From Nitrospirota bacterium (GTDB lineage Bacteria; Nitrospirota; Thermodesulfovibrionia; Thermodesulfovibrionales; SM23-35), in NCBI GenBank assembly GCA_040753615.1, contig JBFMDO010000043.1, positions 12,607 to 76,606 on the forward strand: DNA of 64,000 bases, given 5' to 3'. The position numbers and the translations under genes were made by a program. Positions within the stretch are counted from its first letter, which is position 1; every line of letters begins with the position of its first letter. The notes under the pieces were generated by a model. It searched no databases, was not told where the DNA came from, and was given only the letters and a program-made list of their open reading frames with translations. Positions 21,443 to 51,443 of the stretch are shown here, piece after piece.

Positions 21443-23393
21443 GACAGACCTTGCAGTTTCCATTTGCAAACGGGTTATGTTTTATGTTTTTTAGTAACCC
21501 TGGCTTTTCTGTTACATGCGGCACATGACAGCCCAGGCATTGATTAATTTTAGACACAGGTTTTATGTGTACCTTTAACAATTTATCTGTATCCTTTGAA
21601 TGGCATTTAGTACATAACATCGGGTCTTTCAAATTCAATAAATATTTCAATTCTGCATAGTGGGACATATGACAACTGAGGCAATCTCCTGTCTCCATAT
21701 CTATATGTCCTTTCCTTACAGTAGTAATAACTATTTTCTCGTGGCATGATAGACATAGTTCTTTAGGCTTAGTTAAAAGTAGATGGCTGATCTTTGTCCC
21801 ATGAGGGCTATGACACCCTGTGCACTTTCCTTCCTCTGCAGGGAGATGTTTATTGTTACTGCGATTGAAATTATCCCTCAAGGTCTTATGACAATCATAG
21901 CATAATTCAAGCATTGATTTATGCGTGCTCGCTATATAATCACTTGCGTGCGGATTATGGCAGATCATGCATTCCCTCGCATTAAATGGTTTATGTAAAT
22001 CCTCTGCTTTAAGCTCAAGAAACATATTGCCGTGGCATTTCACACATAGTTGATTAGGTTGATTATTCAAAAGATCTTTATAGGCAGAAGCATGCGGCTT
22101 ATGACAGGAAACGCATTGTTTATTATTCACAGGAGTATGAATATATGTCTTAAAGAACTCTTTTTCTTCTTTTTTATGGCATGTATAGCATATCTCTGTA
22201 AGGGGTGTTTTCATCATATGGGGGTTATTGCTTCCATGAGATTCATGACATTTTTTACATTCAACATTTGAAAATGGAATATGCGTATGTGCTTCTTTCA
22301 ATTCTTTTTCAACATTAATATGACATGAAAAACATATCTTCTTTTCAGGAGCTTTCAGATAAAAAGTGTTTGGAGATGCATGTGGATTATGGCAGGCAGT
22401 GCAGCCTTTATCCTTTATTGGTGAATGTAAGTTGCCCACCTTTAAGACGGCTGCTTTATTTTTATGGCAGCTTATACAGAGATCATTCTTACCCAAAAGT
22501 GTAACCTTTGGATAATCTGTTGCATGCGGACTATGGCAGCTCTGGCATTTATCTTCATCAGTAGGCCGATGCCTGTAAGTCTCTTTAAATGCTTTTTCTT
22601 CCTTCTTATGGCAAGTATAGCAGAGTTTACCATCAGGTGCGATAGTAGCTATCGGGTTAGGATCATCAATTGATTTGTGGCATGAAGAGCACTGTCCTTT
22701 ATCAATTGGGGGATGTATTGATTCCCTCAGCAGTTTATCATTTGTTGAGCTGTGAGCAGTATGACATCCTGTACATTTTCCCTTCTGGACAGGATAACCT
22801 TTATGTGCCTTTTTAAACTTATTAGCCGTATAGTTATGGCATGTCTGGCATAGTTCCAATTCAGATTTTGTCAGATTATTTTCATGCAGCGACCCATGTG
22901 GTGCATGACAGGTAAGACATCCGTCTGAAAGAGGCTTGTGACGATTAGCGCGAATAAACGTATCCTGTTTATGACATATAAAGCATTGTTCATTTCCTAT
23001 CTTTTTCAGAAGAAATTTATTATCTGATGCATGTGGATTATGGCAGGGACGACACTTATTGTTTTTAAGGGCAGTATGTTCATATGTAATCTTGCCCATT
23101 TTTGCCGCCATATCTTTGTGGCAGATATAACAGAGCTTTTTATCTTCCCTTTCCTTAAGACTCAATATAGCAATCTTCCCGTGACGGAGATGGCATGCCT
23201 CACAGTCTCTGCTGACCATTGGGGAGTGAATATACTTTTTCTGATATTCGCTTAATTTTTCTTTGTGGCAGTCGAGACATGGTTTTGCTTCAAAACCCCT
23301 TTTTCGTATGTCAGGGGCACAGGTACAGAAGATGGTAAAGATAACTACAATAAAGATAACTTTAAAAACATTATTTATTATAGAGTTATTCAT
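21435..23393 (-). CDS. 26-heme cytochrome c, probable lipoprotein
   Basis: 26 CxxCH; N-terminal hydrophobic segment ending FCTCA; Lys-rich. Confidence 0.93.
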   Translation of the reverse strand: MNNSIINNVFKVIFIVVIFTIFCTCAPDIRKRGFEAKPCLDCHKEKLSEYQKKYIHSPMVSRDCEACHLRHGKIAILSLKEREDKKLCYICHKDMAAKMGKITYEHTALKNNKCRPCHNPHASDNKFLLKKIGNEQCFICHKQDTFIRANRHKPLSDGCLTCHAPHGSLHENNLTKSELELCQTCHNYTANKFKKAHKGYPVQKGKCTGCHTAHSSTNDKLLRESIHPPIDKGQCSSCHKSIDDPNPIATIAPDGKLCYTCHKKEEKAFKETYRHRPTDEDKCQSCHSPHATDYPKVTLLGKNDLCISCHKNKAAVLKVGNLHSPIKDKGCTACHNPHASPNTFYLKAPEKKICFSCHINVEKELKEAHTHIPFSNVECKKCHESHGSNNPHMMKTPLTEICYTCHKKEEKEFFKTYIHTPVNNKQCVSCHKPHASAYKDLLNNQPNQLCVKCHGNMFLELKAEDLHKPFNARECMICHNPHASDYIASTHKSMLELCYDCHKTLRDNFNRSNNKHLPAEEGKCTGCHSPHGTKISHLLLTKPKELCLSCHEKIVITTVRKGHIDMETGDCLSCHMSHYAELKYLLNLKDPMLCTKCHSKDTDKLLKVHIKPVSKINQCLGCHVPHVTEKPGLLKNIKHNPFANGNCKVCHE

Positions 23394-23455
23394 AATCTTT
23401 AGTAGTTATACTTTATAATTATCAGTTAAACTCATTCCTATGTCAAGAAAAAAAA

Positions 23456-25081
23456 TCACTTCTGTAAACTTTCTTGAAGAGACTGTATTTTGTCTTCGTA
23501 AATTTTTATATGTGCCTCGTTTTTCAGTTGAGCAGTATATTTTTCTAATATGGAATTGAACTGTTCATTAAAGCACGCCTTGTAAACCGCATCTCTGACT
23601 TTACTGAATTCTTCTACTTCTTCTTCGGACTTTTCCTGCAGTTTGATTATTAGATATTGGGAATTAACTTTAATTATAGGGCTGATCTCCCCATAGGGTA
23701 GAGTTTTTACAATATCCCTCGCAGGCTCAGGTAGTCCGTCAATCGTAACCCATCCAACATTACCGCCTTTTGGGGCTGAAGGATCAGCAGATTTTTTCTT
23801 AGCCACCCATGAAAAATCAGCGCCACCCTTTAGCTCATCTAATATTTCCTGTGCCTCTTCCTGAGTCTTTGCTGTAACCTGCTGGATTTTGAAACGAACA
23901 GGCTTCATAAAGTCTTTTTGATGGCTTAAATAATAATCTTCCAATGCTTTATCTGTAATAGATATCTGGGGCACAATTATCCTGTTAATAAATGCCCTCT
24001 TCAGGAGCTGATCCTCATATCTGCGTATCATCTTCTTTAAGTCAGGCTGTTTTTCATAATGCCTTCTTAATGCCTCATGGTCTATTACCTTGCGTTCAAT
24101 CCAGTTATTCAGAATATCTTCCTTTGATTTTCGGGTGCGCGGAAAAATCATATTTGCAAACTCTCCAGCAGTAAGAGACGAGCCATTTACCTCAGCCAGT
24201 ATTCTTTCGTCCTTTAACCACTTTTTTAATTCTTCGGCTGAATTATTTATTTCAATAGCAGTGAAAAGTTCTCTATCAATCTTAATGTTTGTTTTTTCTC
24301 GGAGAAGATTAAGATATTCATCACCCCGCTCTTTTTCTTTTTGTTCCCTTATAGTCTTCTCTATTCTTCTCCTGACATTATTGAACTCCTCATCAGTCGC
24401 CTCTTTCCTGTCAATCAATTTCACTATGTAATATTTATTCAATATCTTCACAATATCGCTGAATTCACCTGAATTCAATTTGGAAATAGCTTCCTGTATA
24501 TAAGTTGAGATTGCGTTCCTTGTAAGTGTAACTTCTCCTCCCTCTTTTTTAGAAGGGTGGATTGAATATTCTTTTGCAAGTTCCTTAAAATCATCACCCT
24601 TTTTCAGCTTCTCTAATACTTCGCCCGCGATCTCCTCTGACTCCATCTCTATAATGCCCAAAGTAAATCGTTCGTAGTTTTTCTTATAATAGTCCTTAAT
24701 TTCCTTTTCTGTAACTGAGACCTTCTGAACAATCTCCTCATCATGAAGCCTGATAACCGATTCCCTTAAAATATATGTCTGAATAGCCTGCTGAATTTCA
24801 GGATATTTATCCATGCCGGAACGCCTTGCATCCTCAATGATTAACCTGTCATCTACCATCTTCCCTACATGCTCTGATAAATTCATTGCGCCTGCTGAAG
24901 AAAGGTCTTCCCTGCGGTGAGTAATTGTTAATGAATATTTTAGGTCTTCCTCAGTGAGGGGTTCTCCATTCACAACCGCTAATACTTTTTCTTTCTGTAG
25001 AAGTGAAGCACAACCACAGAAAACAGTAAACAGTAAACAGTAAATAGTAAACAGTAGAATGCTTGTAATTTTTGAATTCAT
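23456..25081 (-). CDS. Double parvulin (PpiC) peptidyl-prolyl isomerase lipoprotein, SurA/PrsA-like chaperone
   Basis: Lipobox FCGC; two A.VNG..LT domains; DF.ELAK.YS, GADFS.VAK..S.D.SA..GG.VGW. Confidence 0.9.
   Translation of the reverse strand: MNSKITSILLFTIYCLLFTVFCGCASLLQKEKVLAVVNGEPLTEEDLKYSLTITHRREDLSSAGAMNLSEHVGKMVDDRLIIEDARRSGMDKYPEIQQAIQTYILRESVIRLHDEEIVQKVSVTEKEIKDYYKKNYERFTLGIIEMESEEIAGEVLEKLKKGDDFKELAKEYSIHPSKKEGGEVTLTRNAISTYIQEAISKLNSGEFSDIVKILNKYYIVKLIDRKEATDEEFNNVRRRIEKTIREQKEKERGDEYLNLLREKTNIKIDRELFTAIEINNSAEELKKWLKDERILAEVNGSSLTAGEFANMIFPRTRKSKEDILNNWIERKVIDHEALRRHYEKQPDLKKMIRRYEDQLLKRAFINRIIVPQISITDKALEDYYLSHQKDFMKPVRFKIQQVTAKTQEEAQEILDELKGGADFSWVAKKKSADPSAPKGGNVGWVTIDGLPEPARDIVKTLPYGEISPIIKVNSQYLIIKLQEKSEEEVEEFSKVRDAVYKACFNEQFNSILEKYTAQLKNEAHIKIYEDKIQSLQESLQK
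25021..25058. repeat. Heptamer tandem repeat in signal-peptide codons
   Basis: cagtaaa x3, tagtaaa, cagtaga. Confidence 0.85.
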
Positions 25082-25098
25082 TGTGCCTTTAATCCTTC

Positions 25099-25183
25099 CT
25101 CATTAGTCATTAGTCATTAGTCATTTTATTGACCAGTGACCATTGACCAGTGACTTTTTAAAATGACTTTTGACTTTTGACTG
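25099..25183. repeat. Heptamer inverted array
   Basis: cattagt x3 ... tgaccag tgaccat tgaccag tgacttt ... tgacttt x2. Confidence 0.8.
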
Positions 25184-25185
25184 TT

Positions 25186-26250
25186 TTATCGCCATTTTAT
25201 CTTACTCATTTCTTTTGTTAATTTTGATATTACTTTATAAACCACCTTTTCTGCTGACCTTATTCTTCCCCAGTCAAGCATAATTATACCATCATCCCCT
25301 TTATATTGATAGCCGTCATACCATAATATCCTGCCTGTCCTTGTATCAATAAGCCTTGCGCTGACAACGGCTTCAGGTGGAGCAGCACCCTCCCCTTCAT
25401 TATAAAGCTCTACTGTCCCAACCAGAATTCCGTCAACGCCAGCGTGTTCTGCTATAGTCTCTGTGTTTTCAAAGTCTAATTCTCCTTTGCTCCTTATCCT
25501 TAAATCCACTACTAAGCGTCTGACTTCGCCATACTCTAACGGAACAAATTTTTTGTTTTTAGATAACTCTGCTATAAACATATATGTGGCTATCATTCCT
25601 GCATTTCTGACCTTGCTTTTGTTCTCAAAAGGCATCACTGCAATAGTGTATGTTAATTCTTTTTCTTTGGGAGACGGCGAAACAGTGAAGGAATCGAATA
25701 ATTCATCTGCTACCTTTGAGATAAGTTTATCAATAGAGCTTATTTTCCCAAGCCCTAATATTGTCACAAAATCCTCTCCAGTGGCAGAGGCATGTTCTGC
25801 CCACAAAATACTGCCATCAGAAGAACTAACAAGCCTTGCTGAAAAACCTGCCTCTGGGATTTTTTGCTGGGAAAATGAATTTATAGATCCAACCAGAATA
25901 GCTTCAACATTTAATTCTTTCCCTATTTTCATAGCAATATCTTTTGAAATATATCCTGTACTTCTAATCTTCTCTTTGAGAAGAATTTTTTCCAGATTGT
26001 CATCATCCAGTATCCCGACCCCTCTTGCCTCTAATTTTCTCTTTAATGCAGGCATAACAAATGTCAATGCGTCTTTATCTTCGCTAAAATTTTCAAAAGG
26101 AAACAAGGCTATCTTTACTTTTTGGGATGGCTGGGAGGCATAAACTGAGCTAATAGCATAGAGCACGGAGCATAGAGTTAATAGCAAGACGCATAAAACA
26201 AAGAATATAGAGTTTTTAACACTTAGCTCTTTGCTCTTTGCTCTTAGCAC
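25186..26250 (-). CDS. Two-domain CsgG/TolB_N(DUF799)-like periplasmic protein
   Basis: Two repeats of IA.(F/M)PFEN.S...G..L.V..IL.G...SARL....G.ILW; signal peptide. Confidence 0.75.
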   Translation of the reverse strand: MLRAKSKELSVKNSIFFVLCVLLLTLCSVLYAISSVYASQPSQKVKIALFPFENFSEDKDALTFVMPALKRKLEARGVGILDDDNLEKILLKEKIRSTGYISKDIAMKIGKELNVEAILVGSINSFSQQKIPEAGFSARLVSSSDGSILWAEHASATGEDFVTILGLGKISSIDKLISKVADELFDSFTVSPSPKEKELTYTIAVMPFENKSKVRNAGMIATYMFIAELSKNKKFVPLEYGEVRRLVVDLRIRSKGELDFENTETIAEHAGVDGILVGTVELYNEGEGAAPPEAVVSARLIDTRTGRILWYDGYQYKGDDGIIMLDWGRIRSAEKVVYKVISKLTKEMSKIKWR

Positions 26251-26268
26251 TTTGTTAATAGTTCTTTG

Positions 26269-26853
26269 CTAATAATCATAAAGTGTATGGATTGCATCCC
26301 TTACCACTTTTAAGACAGTCTCGCTCAAGGTCTCCGCTCTTGCCCCGAAATGTTTTTCCCAGAAACTAGCGCCAGCGCTTGTCTTTGTAACTGACCATAT
26401 AATATTACCGGAGTTTGCATCAGCCATCATAAGGGTAATGGTTACCTCGTATGTCGAGATATTTCCCTCTCTAACCTCTCCAAATTTTTCAACCGCACCC
26501 ATAATAACCGCCTGCACATTCAAAACCTTGCCTAAAGCCTTTATCTGTTCTGCTCCCAGAGATTGCTCATTCTTAAGTTTCAGTTTTTCTATTGCAGCTA
26601 CTGCGTCACCAGGGCTGACACAATCAACAAGTCCTGAAGCCAGAAGCTCGCTGACCACTACGTGCCTTATAATTTCACCCGCAAACTTGTCATTGGTCAG
26701 ATTATTTAGAGGCAACACTGCTACCCTTTTTATAAAACTGAAATCTACATCAGTCGCAATATAAAAAGAAGGCGCCTTTTTTCCAGCACAGCCAGAAATA
26801 ATAATCAGTGTTAAGCATATATACGCTATTAAATGTTTTTTCAATAAATTCAT
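26269..26853 (-). CDS. CsgG/DUF799-like lipoprotein
   Basis: Lipobox ISGC; RVAVLPLNNLT; LGKVLNVQAVIMGAV; GASFW.KHFG. Confidence 0.8.
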   Translation of the reverse strand: MNLLKKHLIAYICLTLIIISGCAGKKAPSFYIATDVDFSFIKRVAVLPLNNLTNDKFAGEIIRHVVVSELLASGLVDCVSPGDAVAAIEKLKLKNEQSLGAEQIKALGKVLNVQAVIMGAVEKFGEVREGNISTYEVTITLMMADANSGNIIWSVTKTSAGASFWEKHFGARAETLSETVLKVVRDAIHTLYDY

Positions 26854-26888
26854 TTAGTTACCCTGCCCTTATTATGTATTAGCATCTA

Positions 26889-27485
26889 TCAGAATAATGT
26901 ATTAATAGCTTCTTTTACTGTTTTTCTTGCAGCATCACTCAGCGAAATCCCTTCTGAACCAAAATGTCTTGTCCAGAAACTCGCGCCGCCTGTTGTATGC
27001 CTTATTGACCCGATAATGCTGCCTGAAGTTGCATCTATCAACATAAAATTGATCGTAACCTCAGGATAAGTTACTGAGATACCCCTGCTTATTCCAAAGG
27101 CTTCTACTGAACCGCTCATCACTGCTTCCACACCGAGTGTCTTCCCCATTTCCTGCAGTTCTGTGGTCTTTATAGAACCGAGAGACCTGACCTGCAACTC
27201 CCTCAGAAGTCTTGTAACTTCTCCTGGTTCGACCACATCTATACCTTTTAGCAGGAGTTCAGTAATCGCTATCCTTCTAATCTTTTCGCCTGCATAGCTA
27301 TCGCCTGTAAAGTTTTCAAAAGGTAAGACAGCTATCTTTTTGATATTTGCTATATCACCTTCTGACTTTATAAAGTAGTCGGGACCACACCCGTGTATAA
27401 AAATCAGTAAAAAACCAAGAACCAGCACATAGCTCAAATTACAGAGCAATAGATTATTACGAGATAAATCTTGTTTGCCAGCCAT
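26889..27485 (-). CDS. CsgG/DUF799-like lipoprotein (paralog of neighbour)
   Basis: Lipobox IHGC; KIAVLPFENFT; GASFW.RHFG. Confidence 0.8.
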   Translation of the reverse strand: MAGKQDLSRNNLLLCNLSYVLVLGFLLIFIHGCGPDYFIKSEGDIANIKKIAVLPFENFTGDSYAGEKIRRIAITELLLKGIDVVEPGEVTRLLRELQVRSLGSIKTTELQEMGKTLGVEAVMSGSVEAFGISRGISVTYPEVTINFMLIDATSGSIIGSIRHTTGGASFWTRHFGSEGISLSDAARKTVKEAINTLF

Positions 27486-27558
27486 ATTATTTTGTTTAAT
27501 GAATCACTTGTTTTGTATTTTAAAGTATAACCCAAAAAACTCTGCAAACTCAATAAAC

Positions 27559-29871
27559 CTACCAGAACCTGCAGTTTAAACTCCCGCTATAACTATATGT
27601 TTCTTCTTCTGTTTCATCCGTGGAGCATGAATAATTATATGCAAGCTGTAAATCCAGAAACTTTGTTATATTCCATATAGTATACCCGCTGAATGAATCC
27701 GTGGTTGTTGGTTCCGGCTCTGTTCTGCTATGCTGATAACTTAAATTAAATTTGATGGTTGGAAGGAAACGCCAGTCCAATAAAACTCCTTCAGAGGTGC
27801 TTATATCGCCGTCTGTGTCTGATATCTTATAATTACCGGATACATTCATAAAACTTCCCACCCTGTATGTAACTACAGCAGTTCCATCAATTGAAGTAGA
27901 TGTCTCATCTCCCGATGTCTCACTAAAACCATATGAGAAATTTGTGGATAGCCTGCTTGTAAGGCGGGCATCGAGTCTGCCTCTGATATATTTGGTATAA
28001 GACTCAGATTCTGCATCTTCGGATTCTGTATCTTCGGATTCTGCATCTGTTGAAAATGTCTCTGCCTGTGTATATCCAAGATCAACAATCAAATTTACAT
28101 CTTTATAAAGTTTTGCGCCTGTTGTGAATAAATACAGATTGCTTTCTGATTCTTTCTCTCCAAAACTGTAACTTGAAGTTTTAACTAATGAAAGCCTTGT
28201 ATCGAGGGTGGGTAGAGGAGATGAGCTAAAATCAAGAGAGTATGTATTAGAGCTGTAATCTGTTTCGTTACTATTGTCAAATGACTCGTTTCTCTGAAAC
28301 CGCGCTGATGTAGTAAGCAGCCTGTGAGTAAGCCATGTAGAGCCAACTCCATATGTCCTCGTCACATTGCTCTGCATATCTTCTTTACCTGTTATTGAAT
28401 TGCTGAATATATTCGAAAAAGCACCAGTCATTGAGTCTAATGCCGATTCAGGATTTTGGTCTGACCTGTTTAAAAAATAATTCAGTGAAAAGGTGAGCGT
28501 GTTAGAAGGTCTTACGGTAGTAGAGAAATTAATTCCTTGCGTAAAAAATGTGGAAATATCTGTAGTTTTGCCTGTTTCTGATATTTCATCTGTGCCATAA
28601 GCTTCAATCTCTGTTACTAAGACATCGTTTATTGTTGCATTATCAAGATTTATCACTCTAAAAAATAAGGCGTATTGAGGCGCAGCAAATTCTATCTCGT
28701 AACGATATATATTGTTCGAGATATCATATGCAGAGACAGTTATATTCTGAATGGTTATATCTGTCCATGTGCCTGATTGATTAAAGTCGCTGTAAGAGAC
28801 ACTCCAGCTGCTTGGATTTGTCAGGGTTGTATCTGATGTAATATCTTTATTCACATAAATATATAGGGTATCAACAGGCTCTTGAGATGAAAATAACTGT
28901 ATGCCTATATTATGATATGCGCTGCCATTCTGACCAATATTGATTGTGCCAGCAGGAGTATTATAATCATCGTCAGTCAGTGTAAATACAGGCGATAAGA
29001 CATCCACATTTGGCGTGATTGATGTGCCAGGTCCGCCATACATGCCAGACGAGGCTGACCGTTCAAAAGACACGCTTCCTGTTTCAGTTGAAAATTGTTC
29101 AACCTCACTATAAGAATAATTTCCCTGATAGCCTGCTACGATATTAACCTTATTATTCCATAGAGATTTGTTATAGCCAAGGTTATACGAACCATTATAG
29201 CTGTTATTAATAGTCTTTGTGATGGTACTCAGCGGTGTTTCATCTTCACTTCTTGTAAAGGTCAAATTATATGCCAGTTTTATATCTTCATAGAGCAAGT
29301 TATATGAAGAGCTCGCTGAATATTTTGTGGTAGCAGTGTCTGTCTCACTGACTGAAAGATAGTCATAGATTTCCTGCCTGTCAAACTGAAGGAATAAAGA
29401 CGGAAAATCCCGGGGCATTAAGTCAAAACGGGAATAATAGAACTCAGTTGTATCCCTCGTCTCATCTCTTAAACTCGCGGATGTCCATTGTTCTGTACGG
29501 CGATAGCCTGTGGAGATGCCATATACCGGATTCCTGAGAAAAATATCAAAAGCAGGTTCTGCTGTCCTTGAATAGGTAGATGTGGTATCCCCATTGGTAT
29601 CAGTAGATGCTGTATCCGTAAGACTCGTTCTTAAATATAACTGATAAGAAATTACAGGGGTGAGGGATTTATTAAAACTAAAATAATAATTCTGATAAAG
29701 GCTGTCAGAAGACCCTGTCTTTTCTCCTTCCTCGAATGTTTCTGTATTTGTGTAATTTATATTCAGCCATGCATCAGAACCATCAGCAAACGCAGAAGAA
29801 CAAAATAAGAAAGTCGCTATTGTTATGACTATAGATCTCCATGCTATAGACTTCATTAGTCCATTAGTCAC
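27559..29871 (-). CDS. Large outer-membrane beta-barrel with an inserted beta-sandwich domain
   Basis: Signal peptide (SAFA); alternating aromatic/polar strands; Ser/Thr/Asp-rich; C-terminal RFW. Confidence 0.8.
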   Translation of the reverse strand: MTNGLMKSIAWRSIVITIATFLFCSSAFADGSDAWLNINYTNTETFEEGEKTGSSDSLYQNYYFSFNKSLTPVISYQLYLRTSLTDTASTDTNGDTTSTYSRTAEPAFDIFLRNPVYGISTGYRRTEQWTSASLRDETRDTTEFYYSRFDLMPRDFPSLFLQFDRQEIYDYLSVSETDTATTKYSASSSYNLLYEDIKLAYNLTFTRSEDETPLSTITKTINNSYNGSYNLGYNKSLWNNKVNIVAGYQGNYSYSEVEQFSTETGSVSFERSASSGMYGGPGTSITPNVDVLSPVFTLTDDDYNTPAGTINIGQNGSAYHNIGIQLFSSQEPVDTLYIYVNKDITSDTTLTNPSSWSVSYSDFNQSGTWTDITIQNITVSAYDISNNIYRYEIEFAAPQYALFFRVINLDNATINDVLVTEIEAYGTDEISETGKTTDISTFFTQGINFSTTVRPSNTLTFSLNYFLNRSDQNPESALDSMTGAFSNIFSNSITGKEDMQSNVTRTYGVGSTWLTHRLLTTSARFQRNESFDNSNETDYSSNTYSLDFSSSPLPTLDTRLSLVKTSSYSFGEKESESNLYLFTTGAKLYKDVNLIVDLGYTQAETFSTDAESEDTESEDAESESYTKYIRGRLDARLTSRLSTNFSYGFSETSGDETSTSIDGTAVVTYRVGSFMNVSGNYKISDTDGDISTSEGVLLDWRFLPTIKFNLSYQHSRTEPEPTTTDSFSGYTIWNITKFLDLQLAYNYSCSTDETEEETYSYSGSLNCRFW

Positions 29872-29927
29872 CAGTCATTAGTCATTAGTCATTAATTATA
29901 TTGACCAGTGACCAATGACAATTGACT
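29853..29927. repeat. Heptamer inverted array at a gene junction
   Basis: gtcacca gtcatta x3 ... tgaccag tgaccaa tgacaat tgact. Confidence 0.78.
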
Positions 29928-29935
29928 TTTCCTTT

Positions 29936-31702
29936 CTAAAATGGAAACATGGCTATGCCGTAAGGCTTCCTGCCTACAGGCATAATCCGTTCTTCCTTCC
30001 TTGTATTTTTATCTATTTCTGATACAGTATCTGAACCTCTGTTGACCACATATATCTTCCTGCCTTCTGGGTCCAGAATCAATGACCTCGGGGAGTCTCC
30101 TGCTGGTATGACGCCAATCAGAGGAGCCATTGTCATTGTTCCTGTCAAAGAACTAAAAGCCTCTGAGAAAGGCCTGATAATAATTATCTCATCAGCGCTG
30201 TCCTTCAGGAGATAAATCCTGTCCAGATCAGGGTCAGTGACAATTCCTGTGATAGAAGTTCCGACATTAGTGATAGAACTTACTGCACCGGTTTTATTGC
30301 CTTTAATAATCTGCAGGATATCTATAACAGAAAGATTGTCAAAATTATAATTTGCCACATAAACCTTTCCCCGCTGATAATCTACTGTAAGTGCGATAGG
30401 GTTCCATTCAACATTTACATTAATTATTGCATCAGGACTGCTTACTGATGAGGCATCCATTCTTAAGATAGAGACCTCTTTTGAATTTTTATTCACAACA
30501 TATACATTAAAGAATTTCTCGCGATAACTTCTCAAAATGCTAATATCTTCAATGCTGAGAAATCTTGATCCAAAAATGATATCTACTGGCGGATCGACTG
30601 CCACTGCAACAGGGCCATCTCCTACGCTTATCATTTGTATTTCCTGATAGGTCGAGGCATCAATAACAGATATTGTATCAGAGGCGTAATTTGCCACAAA
30701 AATGAATTCTTTCCCACGCGATGTGCTGACCACAGCAATAGCCTCAGGTTCTCTGCCAAATCTTATTGGTATCTCAACCTCAACCTTGTTAGTATGGGGA
30801 TCTATTACAGAGACACTGTTAGAGCCTGAATTTGCCACATAAATTCTCGGACGTTCTCTATTCCAGTTTGCAGCAATGCCCCTCGGTTTTTTCCCCACCA
30901 TTATAGTTGCCGCTACATCGCCTGTCTGCCGATTAAGCACAGACACATTATTTGATTCTTCATTCGTAACATAGATAAGCAAAGAGCTTAACTCGGGGAC
31001 CTCACCTTTAATATCGAATACAGGACTGAATAGATATCCGTCAACAATAGATGCGTCAGGTCTCCAGCTTAAAAACAGCGATGCGCTCTGATTTTTATTT
31101 ATTATTATATCTATATCTATTTCTATTCCTTCAGGCGGGAGCGCTAAATTTGATATCCTGTCTTCCCGCTTAATTAATGCCTCTTGTATTATTAGTTGCA
31201 GTTTTTTGTATCTTCCTTCAGGGAGAGACTTTTCGCCGAGAAGCATCTGTCTGCCTGCAACTGAAAAGGAGTTTATATTCATTTGGGCGCTCATTACCCC
31301 CCTGTATGTTCCATCTTCTGCCATAATATTAATAGCTAAAACATCAAATGTAATATTCAGGGAAGCCTTTTCATGTCCTTTAAGGAATATTGCAATCTGC
31401 CCCTTGTCTGATTCTGTCTCTTCATATTTCTGAATCGAGGCACAACCTGTTAAAAGAAAAAAGAAGCAGAGGGCAAAAACCCAGGAACTGAGGACTAATA
31501 ACTTAGAGCTATTGATACATATAAAATAATGTCTTATGTTTTTGTTATATCCTATTGTATCCTTGTCATTCCTGCGGAAGCAGGAATCCAGGGAAAAGAC
31601 TGGATTCCGCATCAAGTGCGGAATGACGATAGAGGACATTTTTATACAGGAGTCAATAATAACCACGAGAGGGTTTCGATAAATCTGTCTATTGTATAAC
31701 AT
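29936..31702 (-). CDS. YVTN/YncE beta-propeller lipoprotein with a MITE in its leader
   Basis: Lipobox LTGC; IYVTNEESNNVSV, IYVANSGSNSVSVID repeats; N-terminal DUF4382-like region (LPEGRY). Confidence 0.88.
   Translation of the reverse strand: MLYNRQIYRNPLVVIIDSCIKMSSIVIPHLMRNPVFSLDSCFRRNDKDTIGYNKNIRHYFICINSSKLLVLSSWVFALCFFFLLTGCASIQKYEETESDKGQIAIFLKGHEKASLNITFDVLAINIMAEDGTYRGVMSAQMNINSFSVAGRQMLLGEKSLPEGRYKKLQLIIQEALIKREDRISNLALPPEGIEIDIDIIINKNQSASLFLSWRPDASIVDGYLFSPVFDIKGEVPELSSLLIYVTNEESNNVSVLNRQTGDVAATIMVGKKPRGIAANWNRERPRIYVANSGSNSVSVIDPHTNKVEVEIPIRFGREPEAIAVVSTSRGKEFIFVANYASDTISVIDASTYQEIQMISVGDGPVAVAVDPPVDIIFGSRFLSIEDISILRSYREKFFNVYVVNKNSKEVSILRMDASSVSSPDAIINVNVEWNPIALTVDYQRGKVYVANYNFDNLSVIDILQIIKGNKTGAVSSITNVGTSITGIVTDPDLDRIYLLKDSADEIIIIRPFSEAFSSLTGTMTMAPLIGVIPAGDSPRSLILDPEGRKIYVVNRGSDTVSEIDKNTRKEERIMPVGRKPYGIAMFPF
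31510..31658. mobile_element. 147-bp (+TA) MITE, in-frame insertion
   Basis: Imperfect TIRs TATTGA..AAAAT(A)ATGTC; TA target duplication; internal GTCATTCCTGCG..GGAATCCA/TGGATTCC..GGAATGAC REP doublet. Confidence 0.8.
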
Positions 31703-31711
31703 GCTATCTCC

Positions 31712-33157
31712 TCACTTTTTTATAATAACAAAATGGACTCTTCTATTTTTCTGCATACATTCTTTTGTTCTTTCTCTGCATACAGATTTTTCTTCACCAT
31801 AGCTTATAGTCTCTATCCTTTTTGATGGCACGCCAAGCGAAATAAGATAATCCTTTGCCGCATTTGCCCTTTTCTCTCCAAGTGCGAGATTATATTCATT
31901 TGTATCCATTTCATCGCAATGCCCTTCGATCAAAAGTCCTGCTGATGTATTCTTACGCAGCCATGAGGCAATCTCCTTTAAAATAGGCCTTGCATCTGCT
32001 TTTATATCATATTTATCAGTATCAAAATATATATCCTTAAAAATAACTTTTTCTATATGTTCAGGTTCCTTTTCTTCTGCCTCTGTCTCTATCTTCGCAA
32101 CCTGTTCCTCTGTTATTTTTTCTTCTATTACAACTTCTTGAGCAACAATTTCTTCTTCCACTGGTTGAAACACCTGTATACGGTCATTAAATGTATCCGC
32201 TACAAAAATCCTGCCTTGTGAGTCCACAGCTATATCTCTCGGGTACTGGAACCATCCCTCTCCCCAGCCAAGACCACCGAATTCAAAAAGATATTCGCCA
32301 TTCTTATCATAAGCAGAAACCGTATGTCTCATGTAATCTACAACATATATTCTGCCGTTTCGGTTATCCACAGCGACTGCCTGTGGTCGGCTTAACTTAC
32401 TTTTACCTCCACCTTTCTGCCCAAACTTAAAGAGGAAGTTTCTATTTTCGTCATAAACATAGATATGGCTAACTTCCTCACTGACAAGATATATCCTTCC
32501 TGCTTTATCCAGTGTTACATAATTAACCTGAACCTTCCTGTCTTCTTCTTCAGGTGAAAGAATATCTATAAACTGTCCGTCATTATTCAGTATCACAATT
32601 CCCGGAAAAGAGTAACTGGCAACATAAATATCCCCTTTTTTATCCACAACTAACCTATATGGAATGAAAGACGCAGATCCCTCAAAGCCGTGAAAATAAA
32701 TGTCCCTCGTCCATTTAAGGCAGGCATTGTAAACCGAGAGCCTGTGTCTCGGATTTTCGTTCGTTCCAGCCTGAGCAATGTAAAAATTGCCACTCTTATC
32801 AATTGTTAAGCCCTGTGGCATATGAACTCCATCTGCTTTATCAAGGGTAAAAATCGGGAAAAAGTCTGAAGTATAAATAACAACCCTCGCATCGCTGTCA
32901 ATGATATAAATTTCTTTCATACCATCTTCAGTAAAAACAAAAGAAGGGAATAAAGTCTTCCCCCCTTCTTCATCCTCGGTTATGACATCAATATAGGTTA
33001 CCGGTACCCCCTCTATAAAGGCATTCAATTTATTTGGGAAAGACAGCATAGAGCATAGAGCTAACAGCAGAGAGCACAAGATTATCCATACCTCTCTCCA
33101 ACACTTTAAAAATTCAAATCTTTCGATCTTCTTTGTTTCAGATAGTTTACTTCTCAT
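31712..33157 (-). CDS. NHL beta-propeller fused to an OmpA/Pal peptidoglycan-binding domain
   Basis: NHL repeats (FQYPRDIAVDSQGRIFVADTFNDRIQVF); IYFDTDK, IEGHCD, YNLALGEKRA, SYGEE, NRRV. Confidence 0.9.
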   Translation of the reverse strand: MRSKLSETKKIERFEFLKCWREVWIILCSLLLALCSMLSFPNKLNAFIEGVPVTYIDVITEDEEGGKTLFPSFVFTEDGMKEIYIIDSDARVVIYTSDFFPIFTLDKADGVHMPQGLTIDKSGNFYIAQAGTNENPRHRLSVYNACLKWTRDIYFHGFEGSASFIPYRLVVDKKGDIYVASYSFPGIVILNNDGQFIDILSPEEEDRKVQVNYVTLDKAGRIYLVSEEVSHIYVYDENRNFLFKFGQKGGGKSKLSRPQAVAVDNRNGRIYVVDYMRHTVSAYDKNGEYLFEFGGLGWGEGWFQYPRDIAVDSQGRIFVADTFNDRIQVFQPVEEEIVAQEVVIEEKITEEQVAKIETEAEEKEPEHIEKVIFKDIYFDTDKYDIKADARPILKEIASWLRKNTSAGLLIEGHCDEMDTNEYNLALGEKRANAAKDYLISLGVPSKRIETISYGEEKSVCRERTKECMQKNRRVHFVIIKK

Positions 33158-33222
33158 GGTTTAATTTAATTTATACTGCAAAAGTGTGTCAATGCAATTT
33201 TCATCTAAAATACTCCTCTTCC

Positions 33223-33672: not shown

Positions 33673-33705
33673 AAAAAAGGGGGAAGCTGATGCTTACCCC
33701 CTTTT
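33673..33705 (-). terminator. Rho-independent terminator of the major OmcS-like gene
   Basis: Minus strand GGGGG-t-AAGC-atca-GCTT-CCCCC-TTTTTT just after the stop. Confidence 0.85.
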
Positions 33706-33719
33706 AAATAATTAACTTA

Positions 33720-34709
33720 CTACCTCTGTCTATTGTGGCATCCAAGACAGCCATATGTTACACCTGAACCAGCCACTTGTGTAGCATTATAATCCCACCT
33801 TAAAATGTCGTTATATTGTGCACCATGAGACCTGTGGCATGACAAGCATGTAACTCTTGCATTTGCAGCAGTTTCTGTTTCAGCGTTAAATCCTAATGGA
33901 TGGTTTCTCATTGCATCGGCATCGGCTGTCCATTCAGTAGCAAAATTAACGTATATATCCCACGTAGTAGGTATTGCAACATCAGTGGGATGTCTTACAA
34001 ATGGGCTTGCCGCACCTGTGTCATCGCTTCCATGGAAATTACTGTGGCATTTACCGCATAGTTCGCTTATGCTTGGCCCGCCAACTGTTGCGCTGTAGAC
34101 ATTATGGGCAGTTCCTACACCAGAGATTAGTAATTCCTCATAATCAGCTGTCCCGGTACCGAGAACACCATTAGCGCCAACATAAAGGATACGATAGACC
34201 GAAGGGGCATGATGTCCTCCCTTGATAGCAGCCATGTCATCAAGATCTGTCTGATTACCGTGGCAACCATTTGTCCCGGCACAACCCAATCCATTGGTAG
34301 CTCCTGTATACCAAGCATTTTCTGCTGCATCAAACCCAGCGGGTGAAGCAGTAGCGCCTAAATCATGATCGGTATCACTGTTATTATCTGCGGTGTTAGC
34401 AGTTGGCTGGAAGAATCCGCCTGCAAGGCAGTTGTTATTAGTAAAACCACCTGCAACAGAAGTTCTCACATATGGATAACCACCAACAAGGGGGTCAGTA
34501 CCTGTAGTTGTATGACATCCAAGACAGTTGTTTACCAGCAACGCACTATATGGCCCGGCAGTACCCCAGGAACTTAAGGTCCCACCGCCCTGGCTATAAT
34601 GCATGGTATGGCAATTTGCACATGGGCCACTTACAGCTGCATCAGCAAATCCATAGACTAAAAAGAGCGAGAGAAAAGCTACAAGTCCTAAAATTAATAT
34701 CTTTTTCAT
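33720..34709 (-). CDS. OmcS-family hexaheme cytochrome, probable major filament subunit (5 CxxCH + CX5CH)
   Basis: CANCHTMH, CLGCH, CAGTNGCH, ISELCGKCH, RHPTD, CLSCHRSH, CLGCH; strong RBS AAGGAGGTGA; own promoter and terminator. Confidence 0.85.
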   Translation of the reverse strand: MKKILILGLVAFLSLFLVYGFADAAVSGPCANCHTMHYSQGGGTLSSWGTAGPYSALLVNNCLGCHTTTGTDPLVGGYPYVRTSVAGGFTNNNCLAGGFFQPTANTADNNSDTDHDLGATASPAGFDAAENAWYTGATNGLGCAGTNGCHGNQTDLDDMAAIKGGHHAPSVYRILYVGANGVLGTGTADYEELLISGVGTAHNVYSATVGGPSISELCGKCHSNFHGSDDTGAASPFVRHPTDVAIPTTWDIYVNFATEWTADADAMRNHPLGFNAETETAANARVTCLSCHRSHGAQYNDILRWDYNATQVAGSGVTYGCLGCHNRQR

Positions 34710-34823
34710 TCCTTTTCACCTCCTTCCCCTTTAGATTCTTAAATCCTTTTGGATAGCAAAGGATTTAAGGCATAAAGCTAAGGGCTATTTTCTGCCTTCC
34801 TTTACTATCCACAGATAAATTCT

Positions 34824-34839
34824 TGCAATCAATATGCCA
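34824..34839 (-). promoter_or_regulatory. Sigma54 promoter of the major OmcS-like gene
   Basis: Minus strand TTGGCAT-ATTGA-TTGCA. Confidence 0.78.
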
Positions 34840-35073
34840 ACTTTTTGTACAAAAAAAGCATAAAGCCATAAAAAAGAACTTTTTTTAATCGCCCTTCTCC
34901 CCTTAGCTCTATGCTTAAATGTATTTAAAAATATTAGTTAATTTTTGTCAAGCTATTTTTACTCTTTTATCGCTAAATACGAGTTGTATATACTTGATTA
35001 CATAAAGTATGTAACTATTTACACAATTATTTCCGAATGGATCATCTCGACCCCTTGACCCCTCGAACCCTTA

Positions 35074-36159
35074 TTATTGATCCCCTTTTCTTGTATGACA
35101 TGTGAGGCAGCCTACGCGTGTGCCATTACGGACATACATGTTGTCATAGTCCCATCTGAGTATATCAGGATAGGGGCTTGCATGCGCCCTGTGGCATGAA
35201 AGACACATTATTATGCTCTGTGCATTAACCTCTTTTTCACCCCCTGTTGGTTCATAATAAGCAACAGGAGCCTCAAGGCTGTACTTGACATAACTTTCAT
35301 ACTCAGAACCTGCAAAACCAATATGCACAGCATCAAATGCAAGGTCAGAAGGGTGCCTTAGCCAGACAGTAGTATACGCCTGACCAACTTCCTTACTCCC
35401 GCCAAGATTTGGATGGGGATGAAATTTTGCATGGCATTGACCACAGAGATAACTTATAGTATCCATACTGTCATGAGTCATATCGCCTTTATACCCATTA
35501 TGATTATCATCAGTAGCAAGGTATTCCCAATCTTTATGTTCCCTGCCTTTTATTCCATAAAGGAAGCGGTAACTTCTACCGACTGTTAAACCATCTATCA
35601 CGCTGTCATCTTCGTGATGTGCTCCATGAATAGCCTTATACGGGTCTTCTATAGCCCTGTTGCCATGACACCCCCATGTCCCGGCGCAGGCAAGCTGTTT
35701 GTAAGATGGCCAATCTTCTGTCCCTATGCCTCCATGAATTATGACACCACCGATAAATCCAGGCGGAATATTCATGGGGGGATTTTCCTGAATAGATACA
35801 TCAAGCACATTATGTCCTTTTGCATATTGAGGATTATAACCGTCTGCAACATAATAGAAATTACCTGCAGCAAGGTCTCCGTTTCCCATGTGGTGGAGAA
35901 CCTGAGGAATCCGTGCCTTTCCAATGGTCATTATATTCTGAGCGCCAGCAGGATCCTGACCATGACAGCCGAGACATCCACCCTGTGTCAGAATAGGAAA
36001 TGGTCCTGTGCGTTCTCCATAGGTCATTTCTTCACCTTCGTAACTGTCATGCATTGTATGGCAATCTTTACATTTCCCCTTAACGCGGGCATCAACCAAT
36101 CCACAATATAAGACGAGTATCAGTATCATGACAGAACTTGTTATAAATGCCTTTTTCAT
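35074..36159 (-). CDS. OmcS-family hexaheme cytochrome (5 CxxCH + CX5CH)
   Basis: CKDCHTMH, CLGCH, AAGNFYYV, KGHNV, CAGTWGCH, CGQCH, RHPSD, CLSCHRAHAS, CLTCH; likely start ATG 36159. Confidence 0.85.
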   Translation of the reverse strand: MKKAFITSSVMILILVLYCGLVDARVKGKCKDCHTMHDSYEGEEMTYGERTGPFPILTQGGCLGCHGQDPAGAQNIMTIGKARIPQVLHHMGNGDLAAGNFYYVADGYNPQYAKGHNVLDVSIQENPPMNIPPGFIGGVIIHGGIGTEDWPSYKQLACAGTWGCHGNRAIEDPYKAIHGAHHEDDSVIDGLTVGRSYRFLYGIKGREHKDWEYLATDDNHNGYKGDMTHDSMDTISYLCGQCHAKFHPHPNLGGSKEVGQAYTTVWLRHPSDLAFDAVHIGFAGSEYESYVKYSLEAPVAYYEPTGGEKEVNAQSIIMCLSCHRAHASPYPDILRWDYDNMYVRNGTRVGCLTCHTRKGDQ

Positions 36160-36174
36160 CTCTCTAATCCCTTT

Positions 36175-36239
36175 GTCATTAGTCAATTTAATGACCAGTG
36201 ACTTCTTTCACTGACCAGTGACTGTTGACTATTGACTAT
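36175..36239. repeat. Heptamer inverted array
   Basis: gtcatta gtcaatt ... tgaccag tgact ... tgaccag tgactgt tgactat tgactat. Confidence 0.75.
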
Positions 36240-36241
36240 TT

Positions 36242-37285
36242 TTATTTTCCTGTATGGCATATAAAACAACCGCCCTTTCCTTCCTCCCCGGTAATAACAG
36301 CATCATAATCCCATCTCAAAATTGAGTCATAATGACCTGAGTGTGCTACATGGCATGAAAGGCATGTTACAATGTCACTGCCTATTTTTACCTCATCCGT
36401 TGACGACAGAGGGATTTTTTCCCTTCCCACAGGCGCATCAGGGTTATAAATCCTCACATCAGGTCTATCAGGCGGAGGCGGAACTTCAGGGTTATACTCT
36501 GCATACTCGCCATTTTTTGGCAGGACAATGCCTGTTGGATGTCTGAACCATGGGCTTCCTTTGCCTGTATTTTCATTGCCATGAAAATCGCCATGGCAGC
36601 TTGCGCAGAGTATATCTATCGTTGGACAATACTCATTATGCTTTTCTTGGGTTTTATTCTGATTCCATTCATCATCCTCAAGTCCCGAAACACCTTTCAC
36701 TTTATTGGTATTCCCTAAGAACCTGTAACTTCTGGCTGTTGTGCTGCCATCTATTGGGTCATCCTCTGCATGGTGGGAGCCTAAGATTGCTTCAAATGGG
36801 TCTTCTATGTTTCTGTTGCCATGACAGCCATTGGCGCCTGCGCATGCCAATTGTTTCCTATGGTTATAACCTATCTCTGACGGGTCAACTGCCCTGCTAT
36901 ATCCCGGGGGACTGAATAAAAATTTCTCATCCATATACGTAACACCATCCACATTATGTCCCTTTCTGTCGCCAAAATCCCTCGCCACATAATAGAAGTT
37001 TCCGCCTGCCAATGGTTTTAGCGGCAAAACAGTATTCCTAACCACAGGAACTCTAACCCCTGCAAGCATTTTTATAGTATCCCTGTCATTATTTGAATGG
37101 CAGTTCACACAGATGGCATTTTCCAGCACATACTCAAGCGGTTCTCCTATTTCTGCTTCCTTCATCATCCCGGGATAAACAGTATGGCAGACATCACAGT
37201 CATCCGAAACTATTGCACCGCGGACTTCAGAAATTGATAAAAAGAGGATAGTCAATAAGATAATACTTATAGCTAAGTTCTTCAT
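36242..37285 (-). CDS. OmcS-family hexaheme cytochrome lacking the CHTMH His
   Basis: CDVCHTVY, CVNCH, AGGNFYYV, RKGHNV, CAGANGCH, CASCH, RHPTG, CLSCHVAH, CFICH. Confidence 0.82.
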   Translation of the reverse strand: MKNLAISIILLTILFLSISEVRGAIVSDDCDVCHTVYPGMMKEAEIGEPLEYVLENAICVNCHSNNDRDTIKMLAGVRVPVVRNTVLPLKPLAGGNFYYVARDFGDRKGHNVDGVTYMDEKFLFSPPGYSRAVDPSEIGYNHRKQLACAGANGCHGNRNIEDPFEAILGSHHAEDDPIDGSTTARSYRFLGNTNKVKGVSGLEDDEWNQNKTQEKHNEYCPTIDILCASCHGDFHGNENTGKGSPWFRHPTGIVLPKNGEYAEYNPEVPPPPDRPDVRIYNPDAPVGREKIPLSSTDEVKIGSDIVTCLSCHVAHSGHYDSILRWDYDAVITGEEGKGGCFICHTGK

Positions 37286-37328
37286 ATTCTTTAATTATAC
37301 TAAAAATTTAATATCTTGAAAGATAAAG

Positions 37329-37344
37329 AGCAAAAATGGTGCCA
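37329..37344 (-). promoter_or_regulatory. Sigma54 promoter
   Basis: Minus strand TGGCAC-CATTT-TTGCT, 44 bp upstream of ATG 37285. Confidence 0.75.
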
Positions 37345-37352
37345 GATATGAG

Positions 37353-38567
37353 CTACTTTTTACTTTTTGTTTTTGGCTTCTTGCCATAGTCATGGCAGGC
37401 AGCACACAGTTCCGAGCCTTTAGATGCCTTATATTTAAATAGAGTTATATAAGCAGAACTGTGAGGGTCATGACACGTAGTGCAGGAAAGCTCTCCATAT
37501 TTTGATCTCGTATCTTTCCTGTTTTTAAGCGGATGCCCGGCTTGTGTAAAGCCGCCTGTTGCATGGGGTTCCTTGCCAATTCTCGGATGGCAGAGCAGAC
37601 AGCCGTCAGTTATTGGATGATAAAGCAGGGCTACATCCTTTGAGGCATGAGGCTCATGACATACCATGCACATGCCAGCTTCTACAGGGGGGTGGGCATT
37701 TTTCTTATAAAATCCTGTCTTATCATGACACATGAAACAGAGTTCAGGAAAATCAGCAAGAAGAAGTTTTCTTGCATTGCCCTGATGAGGTTCATGACAG
37801 CTCATACATAACCCTGCTGCCACAGGAGAATGATTAAAATCATTTTTAAATTCCGCGCCATCGTGGCATAAATAACATACCTCTGGGGCAGCCTTTAACA
37901 GCAGCTTCTGAGCCTCTGAAGAATGAGGTTCGTGACAGTTCAAACACAATCCTGTTGCCACAGGGGAATGATGTTTTTTCTTTTCTTTTGAAATATATTT
38001 TTCTTTCTTGTGACATATAAAACATACTTCTGGTATATCATCGAGCAGAAGCTTTTTTGCCTTACTGCTGTGCGCATCATGGCATCCAGTGCATTTACCC
38101 TCGCCTACTGGCGGATGCTTGGATGTTCTCATAAAATCAGTTTTATCATGGCAGTAAAAACAAATATCCGGCATTGGCGCAAGAAGCAGGGACGGAGCAT
38201 CAGAGGTGTGGACATCATGGCATGATAAACATTCCATTTTTGCTACAGGGGGATGTCCAACCTTTTTTGAAAACATTGCTTTATTATGACAGCCCCAGCA
38301 GAGGTCAACCTTTTCAGCAAATAAATATTTGGGGAACTTTGCTCCCCTGATGTGCGCCTCTTTATGGCATGAAACACAGCTCGTAGGGTGATCATAATTT
38401 CCAGCTACTTTTATCTTGTGACATTTCATACAATCAGGAAATTGTTGGGAGAAAGAGATATCAGGCATTAAAAAAACAGCAACTGAAAAAATAATGGCAG
38501 AAAAAAGACACATTCTTAAATCTCTTAATTTTTCAATCATCCATTGCCACCAATTGTTTTGTATCAA
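37353..38567 (-). CDS. Periplasmic 15-heme cytochrome c (paired CXXCH repeats)
   Basis: 15 CxxCH; ~46-aa repeats HxPV..G.CxxCHxPH.S...LL....P.xCxxCH; start possibly 38540. Confidence 0.92.
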   Translation of the reverse strand: MIQNNWWQWMIEKLRDLRMCLFSAIIFSVAVFLMPDISFSQQFPDCMKCHKIKVAGNYDHPTSCVSCHKEAHIRGAKFPKYLFAEKVDLCWGCHNKAMFSKKVGHPPVAKMECLSCHDVHTSDAPSLLLAPMPDICFYCHDKTDFMRTSKHPPVGEGKCTGCHDAHSSKAKKLLLDDIPEVCFICHKKEKYISKEKKKHHSPVATGLCLNCHEPHSSEAQKLLLKAAPEVCYLCHDGAEFKNDFNHSPVAAGLCMSCHEPHQGNARKLLLADFPELCFMCHDKTGFYKKNAHPPVEAGMCMVCHEPHASKDVALLYHPITDGCLLCHPRIGKEPHATGGFTQAGHPLKNRKDTRSKYGELSCTTCHDPHSSAYITLFKYKASKGSELCAACHDYGKKPKTKSKK

Positions 38568-38726
38568 TTATTGGATTAACTGGAGCGTTGCTAATACCCA
38601 GTTAAATTATCAAAAAGGGATTGATTAAGTCAATCTTCGTTTTTCATTAGTAGTGCCAATCTTTTTCATTACCATTGTATCGCTGTATGACATGTTTATT
38701 TCCTATCTATGCAATAGAAATCATGA

Positions 38727-39381: not shown

Positions 39382-39519
39382 CAGGACGCTCCTTTCATTA
39401 ACACTAAAAATGTCCCGATGAATTATATATATCACATATTTACGTGAATTGTCAAAATTTGACTGTTAGCCTGCTCCGTACTTGATACAGGGGAATCCAG
39501 ACCCCCTTGTTTTTTATCG

Positions 39520-51442: not shown

Positions 51443-51443
51443 T

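Follow-up and report, generated by a model that had tools for sequence, protein, structure and literature searches.

A conserved OmcS-family cytochrome lineage without the inter-subunit histidine, a candidate end unit of head-to-tail chains in Nitrospirota

Introduction

What becomes of a relative of a nanowire cytochrome that has lost the residue linking one subunit to its neighbor? The question is raised by gene C (36242-37285, minus strand) in a 64,000-nucleotide stretch of contig JBFMDO010000043.1 from a Nitrospirota bacterium (assembly GCA_040753615.1; the whole stretch is called the window below), which also carries three paralogous multihaem cytochrome genes, here named A, B, and D. In OmcS of Geobacter sulfurreducens, one axial ligand of haem 5 is supplied by the neighboring subunit, as stated in passages of two structural studies (bioRxiv 10.1101/492645; 10.1101/2022.07.17.500359). 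An earlier note on this DNA assigned that role to the His of the CHTMH motif and reasoned that the product of C, with CDVCHTVY at this place, could accept the link but not donate it and so would cap one end. We compared C with its relatives in databases and in genomes of the same order. The comparison indicated that the His loss is a single old event kept by a whole gene lineage, and we tentatively read C as the unit at one end of an OmcS-like chain, unable to donate the link.

Results

Gene C encodes an OmcS-family cytochrome without the donor histidine

The reading frame of C was open over its whole length (the sequence includes SDDCDVCHTVYPGMMKE), and six haem-binding motifs were found in the order of OmcS: C30xxCH, C59xxCH, C148x5CH, C227xxCH, C308xxCH, and C340xxCH. 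The region of the first motif is CDVCHTVYPGMM. At this site C has CDVCHTVY versus CANCHTMH in A, CKDCHTMH in B (35074-36159/36186), and CSNCHTMH in D, as the earlier note had seen, and a paralogue-profile search of the whole 2.29-Mb genome added two paralogues on contig C16, both with CxNCHTMH. The His was thus missing from one of six paralogues of the genome, namely C. Tyr37 of C occupies the column of the inter-subunit His in the paralogues and in OmcS, and the stretch of C from the haem-1 His (H34) to the haem-2 motif (C59) contained no further His.

In Pfam and NCBIfam, C matched only generic haem-motif families. Searched alone against the PDB, its best match was OmcS (6ef8_A, E 0.0037) through the haem-5 region, which aligned to OmcS 324-347. 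A profile built from 82 family proteins matched 6ef8_A at E 4.7e-25, with profile positions 30-327 on OmcS 8-348 and the consensus CsnCHtmH falling on C9-E-G-C12-H13-T14-M15-H16. By this register the residue missing from C is the one at position 16 of OmcS, which we take to be the inter-subunit ligand known as His16; the position agrees with the 6ef8 chain numbering. The AlphaFold model of C, computed from a 119-row family alignment, had a predicted local distance difference test score (pLDDT) of 85.3 and a predicted template modelling score (pTM) of 0.82. Its sole significant Foldseek match was again 6ef8_A (E 6.6e-4, TMq 0.42), and VIA-align placed model residues 33-347 on OmcS 8-407 (Z 14.7, root mean square deviation 4.3 A, 263 residues), so that the structural alignment proposed in the earlier note recovered the OmcS fold. 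By homology, modelled fold, and six-haem order, C is assigned to the OmcS family.

C resembles OmcS (6ef8/6nef) in fold, haem order, and the placement of the haem-1 motif at the mature N-terminus, and the haem-5 motif CLSCHxAH and an LRHP motif are conserved in it. The haem-5 site of C aligned with OmcS C328-H332-H335 and was invariant across the 119-row alignment, C included. The two proteins differ in that C has Tyr for His16 and hence no inter-subunit ligand to donate, that its third haem motif is Cx5CH rather than CxxCH, that C is shorter by about 60 residues, with only 24% of structurally aligned residues identical, and that it belongs to a six-paralogue set with a fixed partner, B, in a Nitrospirota-type genome. 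The third haem site (codons 148-155, 36821-36844) reads CAGxNGCH where OmcS has CSSCH; this unusually long haem-binding motif was found in five of the six paralogues and in most of the family.

The His loss is shared by a whole gene lineage

The 120 best database relatives of C were 51-74% identical to it and, where named, came from Nitrospirota/Thermodesulfovibrionales. The haem-1 motif was visible in 119 of them, the remaining one being N-truncated, and the residue in the column of the inter-subunit His was Tyr or Phe in 117, Pro in 2, and His in none. In the 119-row alignment, the His was absent from all 67 rows of the clade of C (0/67) versus present in all 52 rows outside it (52/52); Tyr stood there in 70% of the clade and mostly Phe in the rest. 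The next residues of the clade were also conserved (Pro38, 91%; Gly39, 90%; Met40, 81%) where the other paralogues have Asn-Ser-Gln.

We surveyed 121 genomes of the same order and found the family in 24 of them at E 1e-20 or better; 94 family reading frames were classified, with three N-truncated fragments unclassifiable. In a maximum-likelihood tree of 85 full-length proteins from these 24 genomes (nine fragments or proteins of odd length excluded), the 17 His-less proteins formed one clade with a Shimodaira-Hasegawa-like approximate likelihood ratio test (SH-aLRT) value of 100, a stem length of 0.76, and a single change of the trait. Sporadic loss, which the earlier note had named as evidence against its proposal, was not what we found. 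The note had also expected exactly one His-less paralogue at each homologous locus. This held for 17 of the 24 family-bearing genomes, and no genome had two; the other seven had none.

Six paralogues in one genome, together with several losses of the His in the wider family (see below), might suggest that the His decayed neutrally in a redundant copy. However, this old clade shows good conservation, with a mean column identity of 55% across 65 sequences and its six haem motifs intact, the replacement motif is itself conserved, and the frame of the His-less gene was open in 17 of 17 genomes. Neutral decay is close to refuted by these conservation data, and we regard it as very improbable.

The earlier note had further asked whether another His substitutes for the lost one. 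At the level of sequence, the 119-row alignment held no clade-specific conserved His, Met, or Cys that could serve as a substitute ligand. Met40 and Met41 were considered as replacements and found unlikely, since Met40 is conserved in 81% only and is swapped for Leu, Val, or Ile; Tyr37 alternates with Phe.

C is invariably paired with B

In all 17 genomes with a His-less gene, C was immediately followed on its own strand by a B-clade gene, with three of the B copies cut by contig ends, and B without C occurred in none of the 24 family-bearing genomes. A separate scan found the same C-B pair at five further contig loci. Across genomes, the two genes often overlap or sit a few bases apart. B formed its own well-supported clade (14 rows, SH-aLRT 100) with the motif C[KR][DN]CHxMH, and retained its own haem-5 acceptor motif. 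The N-terminal arms of the partners, taken as the haem-1 motif together with the six residues that precede its first Cys, carried opposite mean net charges: -2.0 in the C clade (n=65) and +2.7 in B (n=70). For the remaining paralogues (n=51) the value was +0.2. The basic arm of B would thus suit the acceptor end of C. Conservation was higher in C (58.7%) and B (66.0%) than in a third paralogue (45.8%), as measured over 45 non-independent pairs. Charged residues made up 20-24% of B and C versus 12-15% of A, D, and the two C16 paralogues, and Ser plus Thr about 10% versus 17-20%.

As the earlier note had proposed, the complex of B (25-361) with C (24-347) was predicted, with separate alignments for each chain. 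The interface score ipSAE was 0.44 (runs 0.41, 0.50, and 0.44) versus 0.01 for the best control, contact agreement between runs was at least 90%, and the pLDDT of the partner was at least 80. The pair passed the mark, as did 116 of 157 solved complexes and 2 of 215 mismatches. Only 18 of the 157 solved complexes passed with scores of 0.60 or under, and both passing mismatches did so; support from this score is weak.

The pairing also bears on the possibility of a true heteropolymer of alternating C and B subunits, in which one of the two interfaces would lack the His-iron bond. The genes are equal in copy number and adjacent, the conserved arm of C implies contact with something, and OmcZ filaments polymerise without an inter-subunit ligand according to passages of bioRxiv 10.1101/2022.07.17.500359. 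Against this, wherever C met B in this order, haem 5 of B would be left without a distal ligand, the ribosome site of C is poor compared with that of A, and the cytochrome nanowires found so far are all homopolymeric in the passages cited from PMC11936953. We consider such a heteropolymer a long shot.

Only the first module lacks the His in fused relatives

In P0388, P0258, P0364, and P0263, two to five OmcS-family modules are joined head to tail in a single polypeptide; such proteins amount to stretches of nanowire linked by covalent bonds. A search for longer fused relatives scored 8000 candidates and found two; the number of fusions is small and does not amount to a survey. P0388 (1609 aa) consists of four complete modules and one partial module that abut each other (profile matches at 41-364, 367-709, 711-1054, 1055-1396, and 1400-1446). 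Its first module has CNVCHTGG, and modules 2 to 5 have CNKCHTIH, CNKCHNMH, CFNCHTMH, and CNKCHTMH. In P0258 (841 aa), CNRCHDGG in module 1 is followed by CSDCHTMH in module 2. The first module of P0364 (1401 aa) lacked a haem-1 arm altogether, and the His was present in the module after it; the second module of P0263, a fragment, had the His as well.

The linkers of the fusions, measured from the haem-6 His to the next haem-1 Cys, were 9-15 residues long, which equals the free C-terminal tail (3-6) plus the mature N-terminus (5-6). These lengths imply that the units of the family sit head to tail as in OmcS. In both P0388 and P0258 only the first module lacked the His, which suggests that the first unit of a chain does without it, as predicted for a unit that accepts but does not donate and sits at an end. 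The fusions are built of the same module as C, with later modules retaining the His, and differ from it in being covalent chains and in their first modules, which have CxxCHxGG instead of the CxxCHx[LVI][YF]PGMM of the C clade. Since these first modules fall outside that clade, the His loss must have arisen there independently.

The fusions also bear on the main rival explanation, a closed and short C-B assembly: a 12-haem heterodimer, the split form of a two-module fusion, would pass electrons between the 15-haem cytochrome or an outer-membrane conduit and the outside, and would not be joined to a long filament. P0258 has a His-less module followed by a His-bearing one, the order of C and then B. 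The strict gene pairing (17/17), the charged and Ser/Thr-poor composition that sets C and B apart from the other paralogues, their higher conservation, and the complex score would all fit such an assembly. However, the haem-5 acceptor of B would need a donor, the pair lies in a cluster that is collinear with the neighborhood of an OmcS orthologue and holds more His-bearing paralogues, and P0388 shows that chains of the family can have more than two units. We judge the closed pair to be the strongest competitor and still unlikely.

C as a proposed non-donor end unit

Taken together, these results led us to favor, tentatively, the explanation that C is a non-donor unit at the haem-1 end of a head-to-tail OmcS-like chain and works with B; we infer the filament, the order of its subunits, and the end occupied by C. 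Haem 5 of C could still be ligated by a His of the following subunit, for which the constant gene neighbor B is the most likely candidate. The N-terminal arm of C would ligate no haem of a further subunit, so that no family member could be clipped on at the haem-1 end. This arm has instead turned acidic and hydrophobic (..SGDCxxCHx[LVI][YF]PGMM) and probably docks on a different partner, for which our guess is the basic 15-haem cytochrome encoded just upstream; the acidic arm would suit this basic protein. Docked there, C would be the base piece, where electrons enter. Few copies of C and B would be present, and the repeating part would consist of other paralogues (A and D).

At the sequence level, then, the acceptor is kept, the donor is lost, and there is one copy per system; the end location is suggested by the fusion proteins. 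The part of the earlier proposal that held is that the haem-5 site is kept and the donor His lost, and the fusions fit a cap; polymerisation, and which end C would take, are inferred only.

Observations that weigh against an end unit

Several findings count against this explanation. Of the 108 B-type proteins from databases in which the haem-1 motif could be seen, 9 also lacked the His (six with CKDCH[NY]VR-like motifs and three with a shortened arm), and in one related genome or locus, L005, both C and B were without it; B-to-C ligation is therefore not universal. The B-type gene of this long-read assembly (L005:11033-12052(+)) also lacked the second haem motif and is either damaged or affected by assembly errors. 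A sequencing artefact was half rejected as its explanation, in that its CKDCHYVR start fits a real His-less B subgroup, yet the haem-2 motif is missing. The C-B pair was absent from 7 of the 24 family-bearing genomes, so that any wire made of the other paralogues does not need it. The complex score of C and B lies in the weak band, and the solved OmcS filament may have been remembered by the predictor. A sigma54-type site similar to that before C was present in only 5 of 22 related loci. The charged, Ser/Thr-poor make-up of B and C could point to a periplasmic rather than an extracellular place. Passages of PMC12977616 describe only OmcS itself as known to form a wire and the function of its paralogues as unknown. 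Finally, the family has seven conserved His outside the motifs versus the five same-chain ones needed by the OmcS pattern, so that haem 5 of C may have an internal ligand.

Beyond the C clade, the His was kept in 131 of 138 classifiable representative clusters among the best 150 of 1148. In a second phylum the family was found in 54 of 301 genomes, and 30 automatic loci plus 23 stretches picked for odd or weak scores were sampled from about 170 matches. This sample contained one C-B pair (L066) and several solitary His16-less genes, which fit a monomer as well as a cap and count against the end unit too. One solitary type, CDKCHASY (CDKCHASYKAVVT), occurred in four genomes (L092-L095) beside a GAPDH-like gene; L100 encodes a His16-less family protein with CANCHTVT; and L112:676-1878(-) encodes a paralogue of OmcS proper (E 3.8e-70 to 6ef8) with Leu at the His16 position. 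The His, as these sequences indicate, is strongly conserved in the wider family but has been lost several times, not always beside a partner.

These solitary genes raise the alternative that C is a stand-alone monomeric carrier, periplasmic or secreted, whose haem 5 is ligated by its own chain or is five-coordinate. The spare conserved His of the family and the charged composition of C speak for it, as does the OmcS-like OscC/GSU2501, which a table of PMC13194489 gives as periplasmic. A monomer would not account for the constant presence of B beside C, the conservation of the N-terminal arm, the opposite arm charges of C and B, or the first-module rule of the fusions, and the C clade conserves no His, Met, or Cys of its own to replace the ligand. 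We regard this alternative as improbable, more so than the closed pair.

The cluster of C resembles the omcS companion type

In the direction of transcription, the window holds the 15-haem cytochrome, C, B, A, an NHL-OmpA protein, a YVTN propeller, a 770-aa barrel candidate, two lipoproteins, a CsgG/LpoB-like protein, a PpiC isomerase, two large multihaem cytochromes, a toxin-antitoxin insert, and D (Table 1). Two other genomes (L031 and L052) had the identical order. In 10 of 16 further genomes, and likewise at 4 of 5 contig loci, the gene next upstream of C encoded a relative of the 15-haem cytochrome. Seven genes of the companion block matched, in the same order, genes beside the OmcS orthologue of L111, a locus of another phylum (E 5e-11 to 4e-49), where the orthologue itself matched 6ef8 at E 1.9e-109. 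The cluster fits the omcS companion (osc) type and its gene names as given in passages of PMC13194489 and PMC12977616. The same sources describe Geobacter OmcT, OscC/GSU2501, and OmcJ as OmcS-like hexahaem proteins beside osc genes, in likeness to the paralogues here, and in the passages of PMC12977616 a GSU2501-like gene always precedes the companion block. By position it is A, and not C, that corresponds to GSU2501 of Geobacter.

Table 1. Features of the window around gene C
Feature	Position	Strand	Remarks
Gene C	36242..37285	-	OmcS-family hexahaem cytochrome, 347 aa, Sec-type signal peptide, without the His16 equivalent
Haem-1 site of C	37163..37198	-	Codons 30-41: CDVCH then T-V-Y-P-G-M-M
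Haem-5 site of C	36341..36364	-	Codons 308-315, CLSCHVAH; C308, C311, H312, H315 invariant
Sigma54-type promoter-like site of C	37330..37344	-	TGGCACCATTTTTGC; TGGCAC-N5-TTGC, 45 nt before ATG
Gene B	35074..36159	-	361 aa from ATG at 36159; CKDCHTMH, basic N-terminal arm
Gene A	33720..34709	-	329 aa, CANCHTMH, 2 Lys, GGAGGTG ribosome site; directly before companion block
Sigma54-like site of A	34825..34839	-	TGGCATATTGATTGC; TGGCAT-N5-TTGC, one mismatch
Terminator-like hairpin and T run	33682..33701	-	Just after A
Gene D	16852..18042	-	396 aa, CSNCHTMH, one extra CxxCH
Sigma54-like site of D	18142-18156		One mismatch
Multihaem cytochrome, 15 CxxCH	37353..38567	-	DmsE/GSU2203-like, isoelectric point (pI) about 8.7, 45 Lys; directly upstream of C
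OmcS-companion-like block	20090..33157	-	Genes itemised in the rows below
NHL-OmpA	31712-33157	-	Companion block
YVTN propeller	29936-31702	-	Companion block
Barrel candidate, 770 aa	27559-29871	-	Companion block
Two lipoproteins	26889-27485, 26269-26853	-	Companion block
CsgG/LpoB-like protein	25186-26250	-	Companion block
PpiC isomerase	23456-25081	-	Companion block
Two multihaem cytochromes	21435-23393, 20090-21469	-	Companion block
Repeat element, partly palindromic	18158-18196, 20053-20091, 25109-25147, 29881-29919, 36171-36233		TAGTCATT / TGACCAGTGAC units; TAGTCATTAGTCATT ... TTGACCAGTGAC; five intergenic gaps of the cluster, C-B gap = 36171..36233

Small genes resembling PIN-domain toxin-antitoxin genes were inserted between genes of the cluster at 18159-19638, before D, and at 38727-39435(-), the latter separating the 15-haem gene from a gene for a 1148-aa NosD/beta-helix protein further upstream (39520-42966(-)). 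Downstream of D, 12272-16827(-) encodes an NHL-fibronectin protein, a fibronectin-domain protein, and a 476-aa cytochrome with several haem motifs. The NosD/beta-helix protein, the fibronectin proteins, and this cytochrome may be further surface parts of the system. Genes for a PilS-like kinase, a sigma54-dependent response regulator, two PilB-like ATPases, a PilT-like ATPase, and PilC were found 10 kb upstream (47141-56198(-)).

Expression signals differ between C and A

The sigma54-type site before C was the only exact match to TGGCAC-N5-TTGC in the window. The shared sigma54 promoter that the earlier note had proposed for C and B was thus present as an exact site in this genome; as a conserved promoter of the pair it was rejected on its low recurrence among the related loci. 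The sigma54-dependent regulator of the upstream gene group is a candidate activator of the sites before C, A, and D. The note had also taken A for the major subunit on account of its own promoter, a strong ribosome site, a terminator, and few Lys, and all of these features were found: a sigma54-like site, GGAGGTG, a hairpin, and 2 Lys in about 305 mature residues. No clear ribosome site was seen before C. For 33600-38700 no RNA data set was listed; the single entry was a groundwater DNA data set, possibly the source of this DNA.

The repeat element in five gaps of the cluster, one of them between C and B, may be an operator or an RNA element. A different, G+C-rich palindromic element (CACACACCCCTATCCCCTCTCGAGAGGGG...) occurred twice, at 14538-14649 and at 33362-33441 just downstream of A, and accounts for the odd reading frames at 33186-33605.

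Discussion

Bacterial filaments of other kinds have minor or terminal subunits, such as minor pilins and the tip and terminator subunits of chaperone-usher systems. By analogy, C would be related to the shaft subunit as a paralogue with one polymerisation interface retained and the other lost, and, like such subunits, is encoded in the same cluster as the shaft gene with weak translation signals. The systems differ in their chemistry, in that subunits here would be joined through a His-iron bond and not by the packing of strands or helices. No description of a His16-less paralogue class, of a cap, or of a heteromeric cytochrome wire was found in the literature searched, which covered subscription papers only in small part.

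A broader model can be drawn from the preferred reading of C as an end unit, and we hold it to be doubtful at present. In Thermodesulfovibrionia-type bacteria, polar heteromeric nanowires would start from a base pair of C and B, with the acidic arm of C on the basic 15-haem conduit and the His of the basic arm of B inserted into C; this pair would nucleate a shaft of variable, Ser/Thr-rich paralogues, and the rule that the first unit lacks His16 would be general in the OmcS superfamily. If this is true, the absence of His16 marks chain ends in both split and fused forms, and filament polarity and minor subunits become predictable from sequence.

For the question of how cytochrome nanowires begin, end, and attach to the cell, C is a concrete candidate, as the piece at the end or base of a wire. 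Chain polarity, in turn, would have a sequence signature in the first-module rule of the fused proteins. With six paralogues and at least three roles, the OmcS system of this uncultured groundwater lineage would be richer than the Geobacter model.

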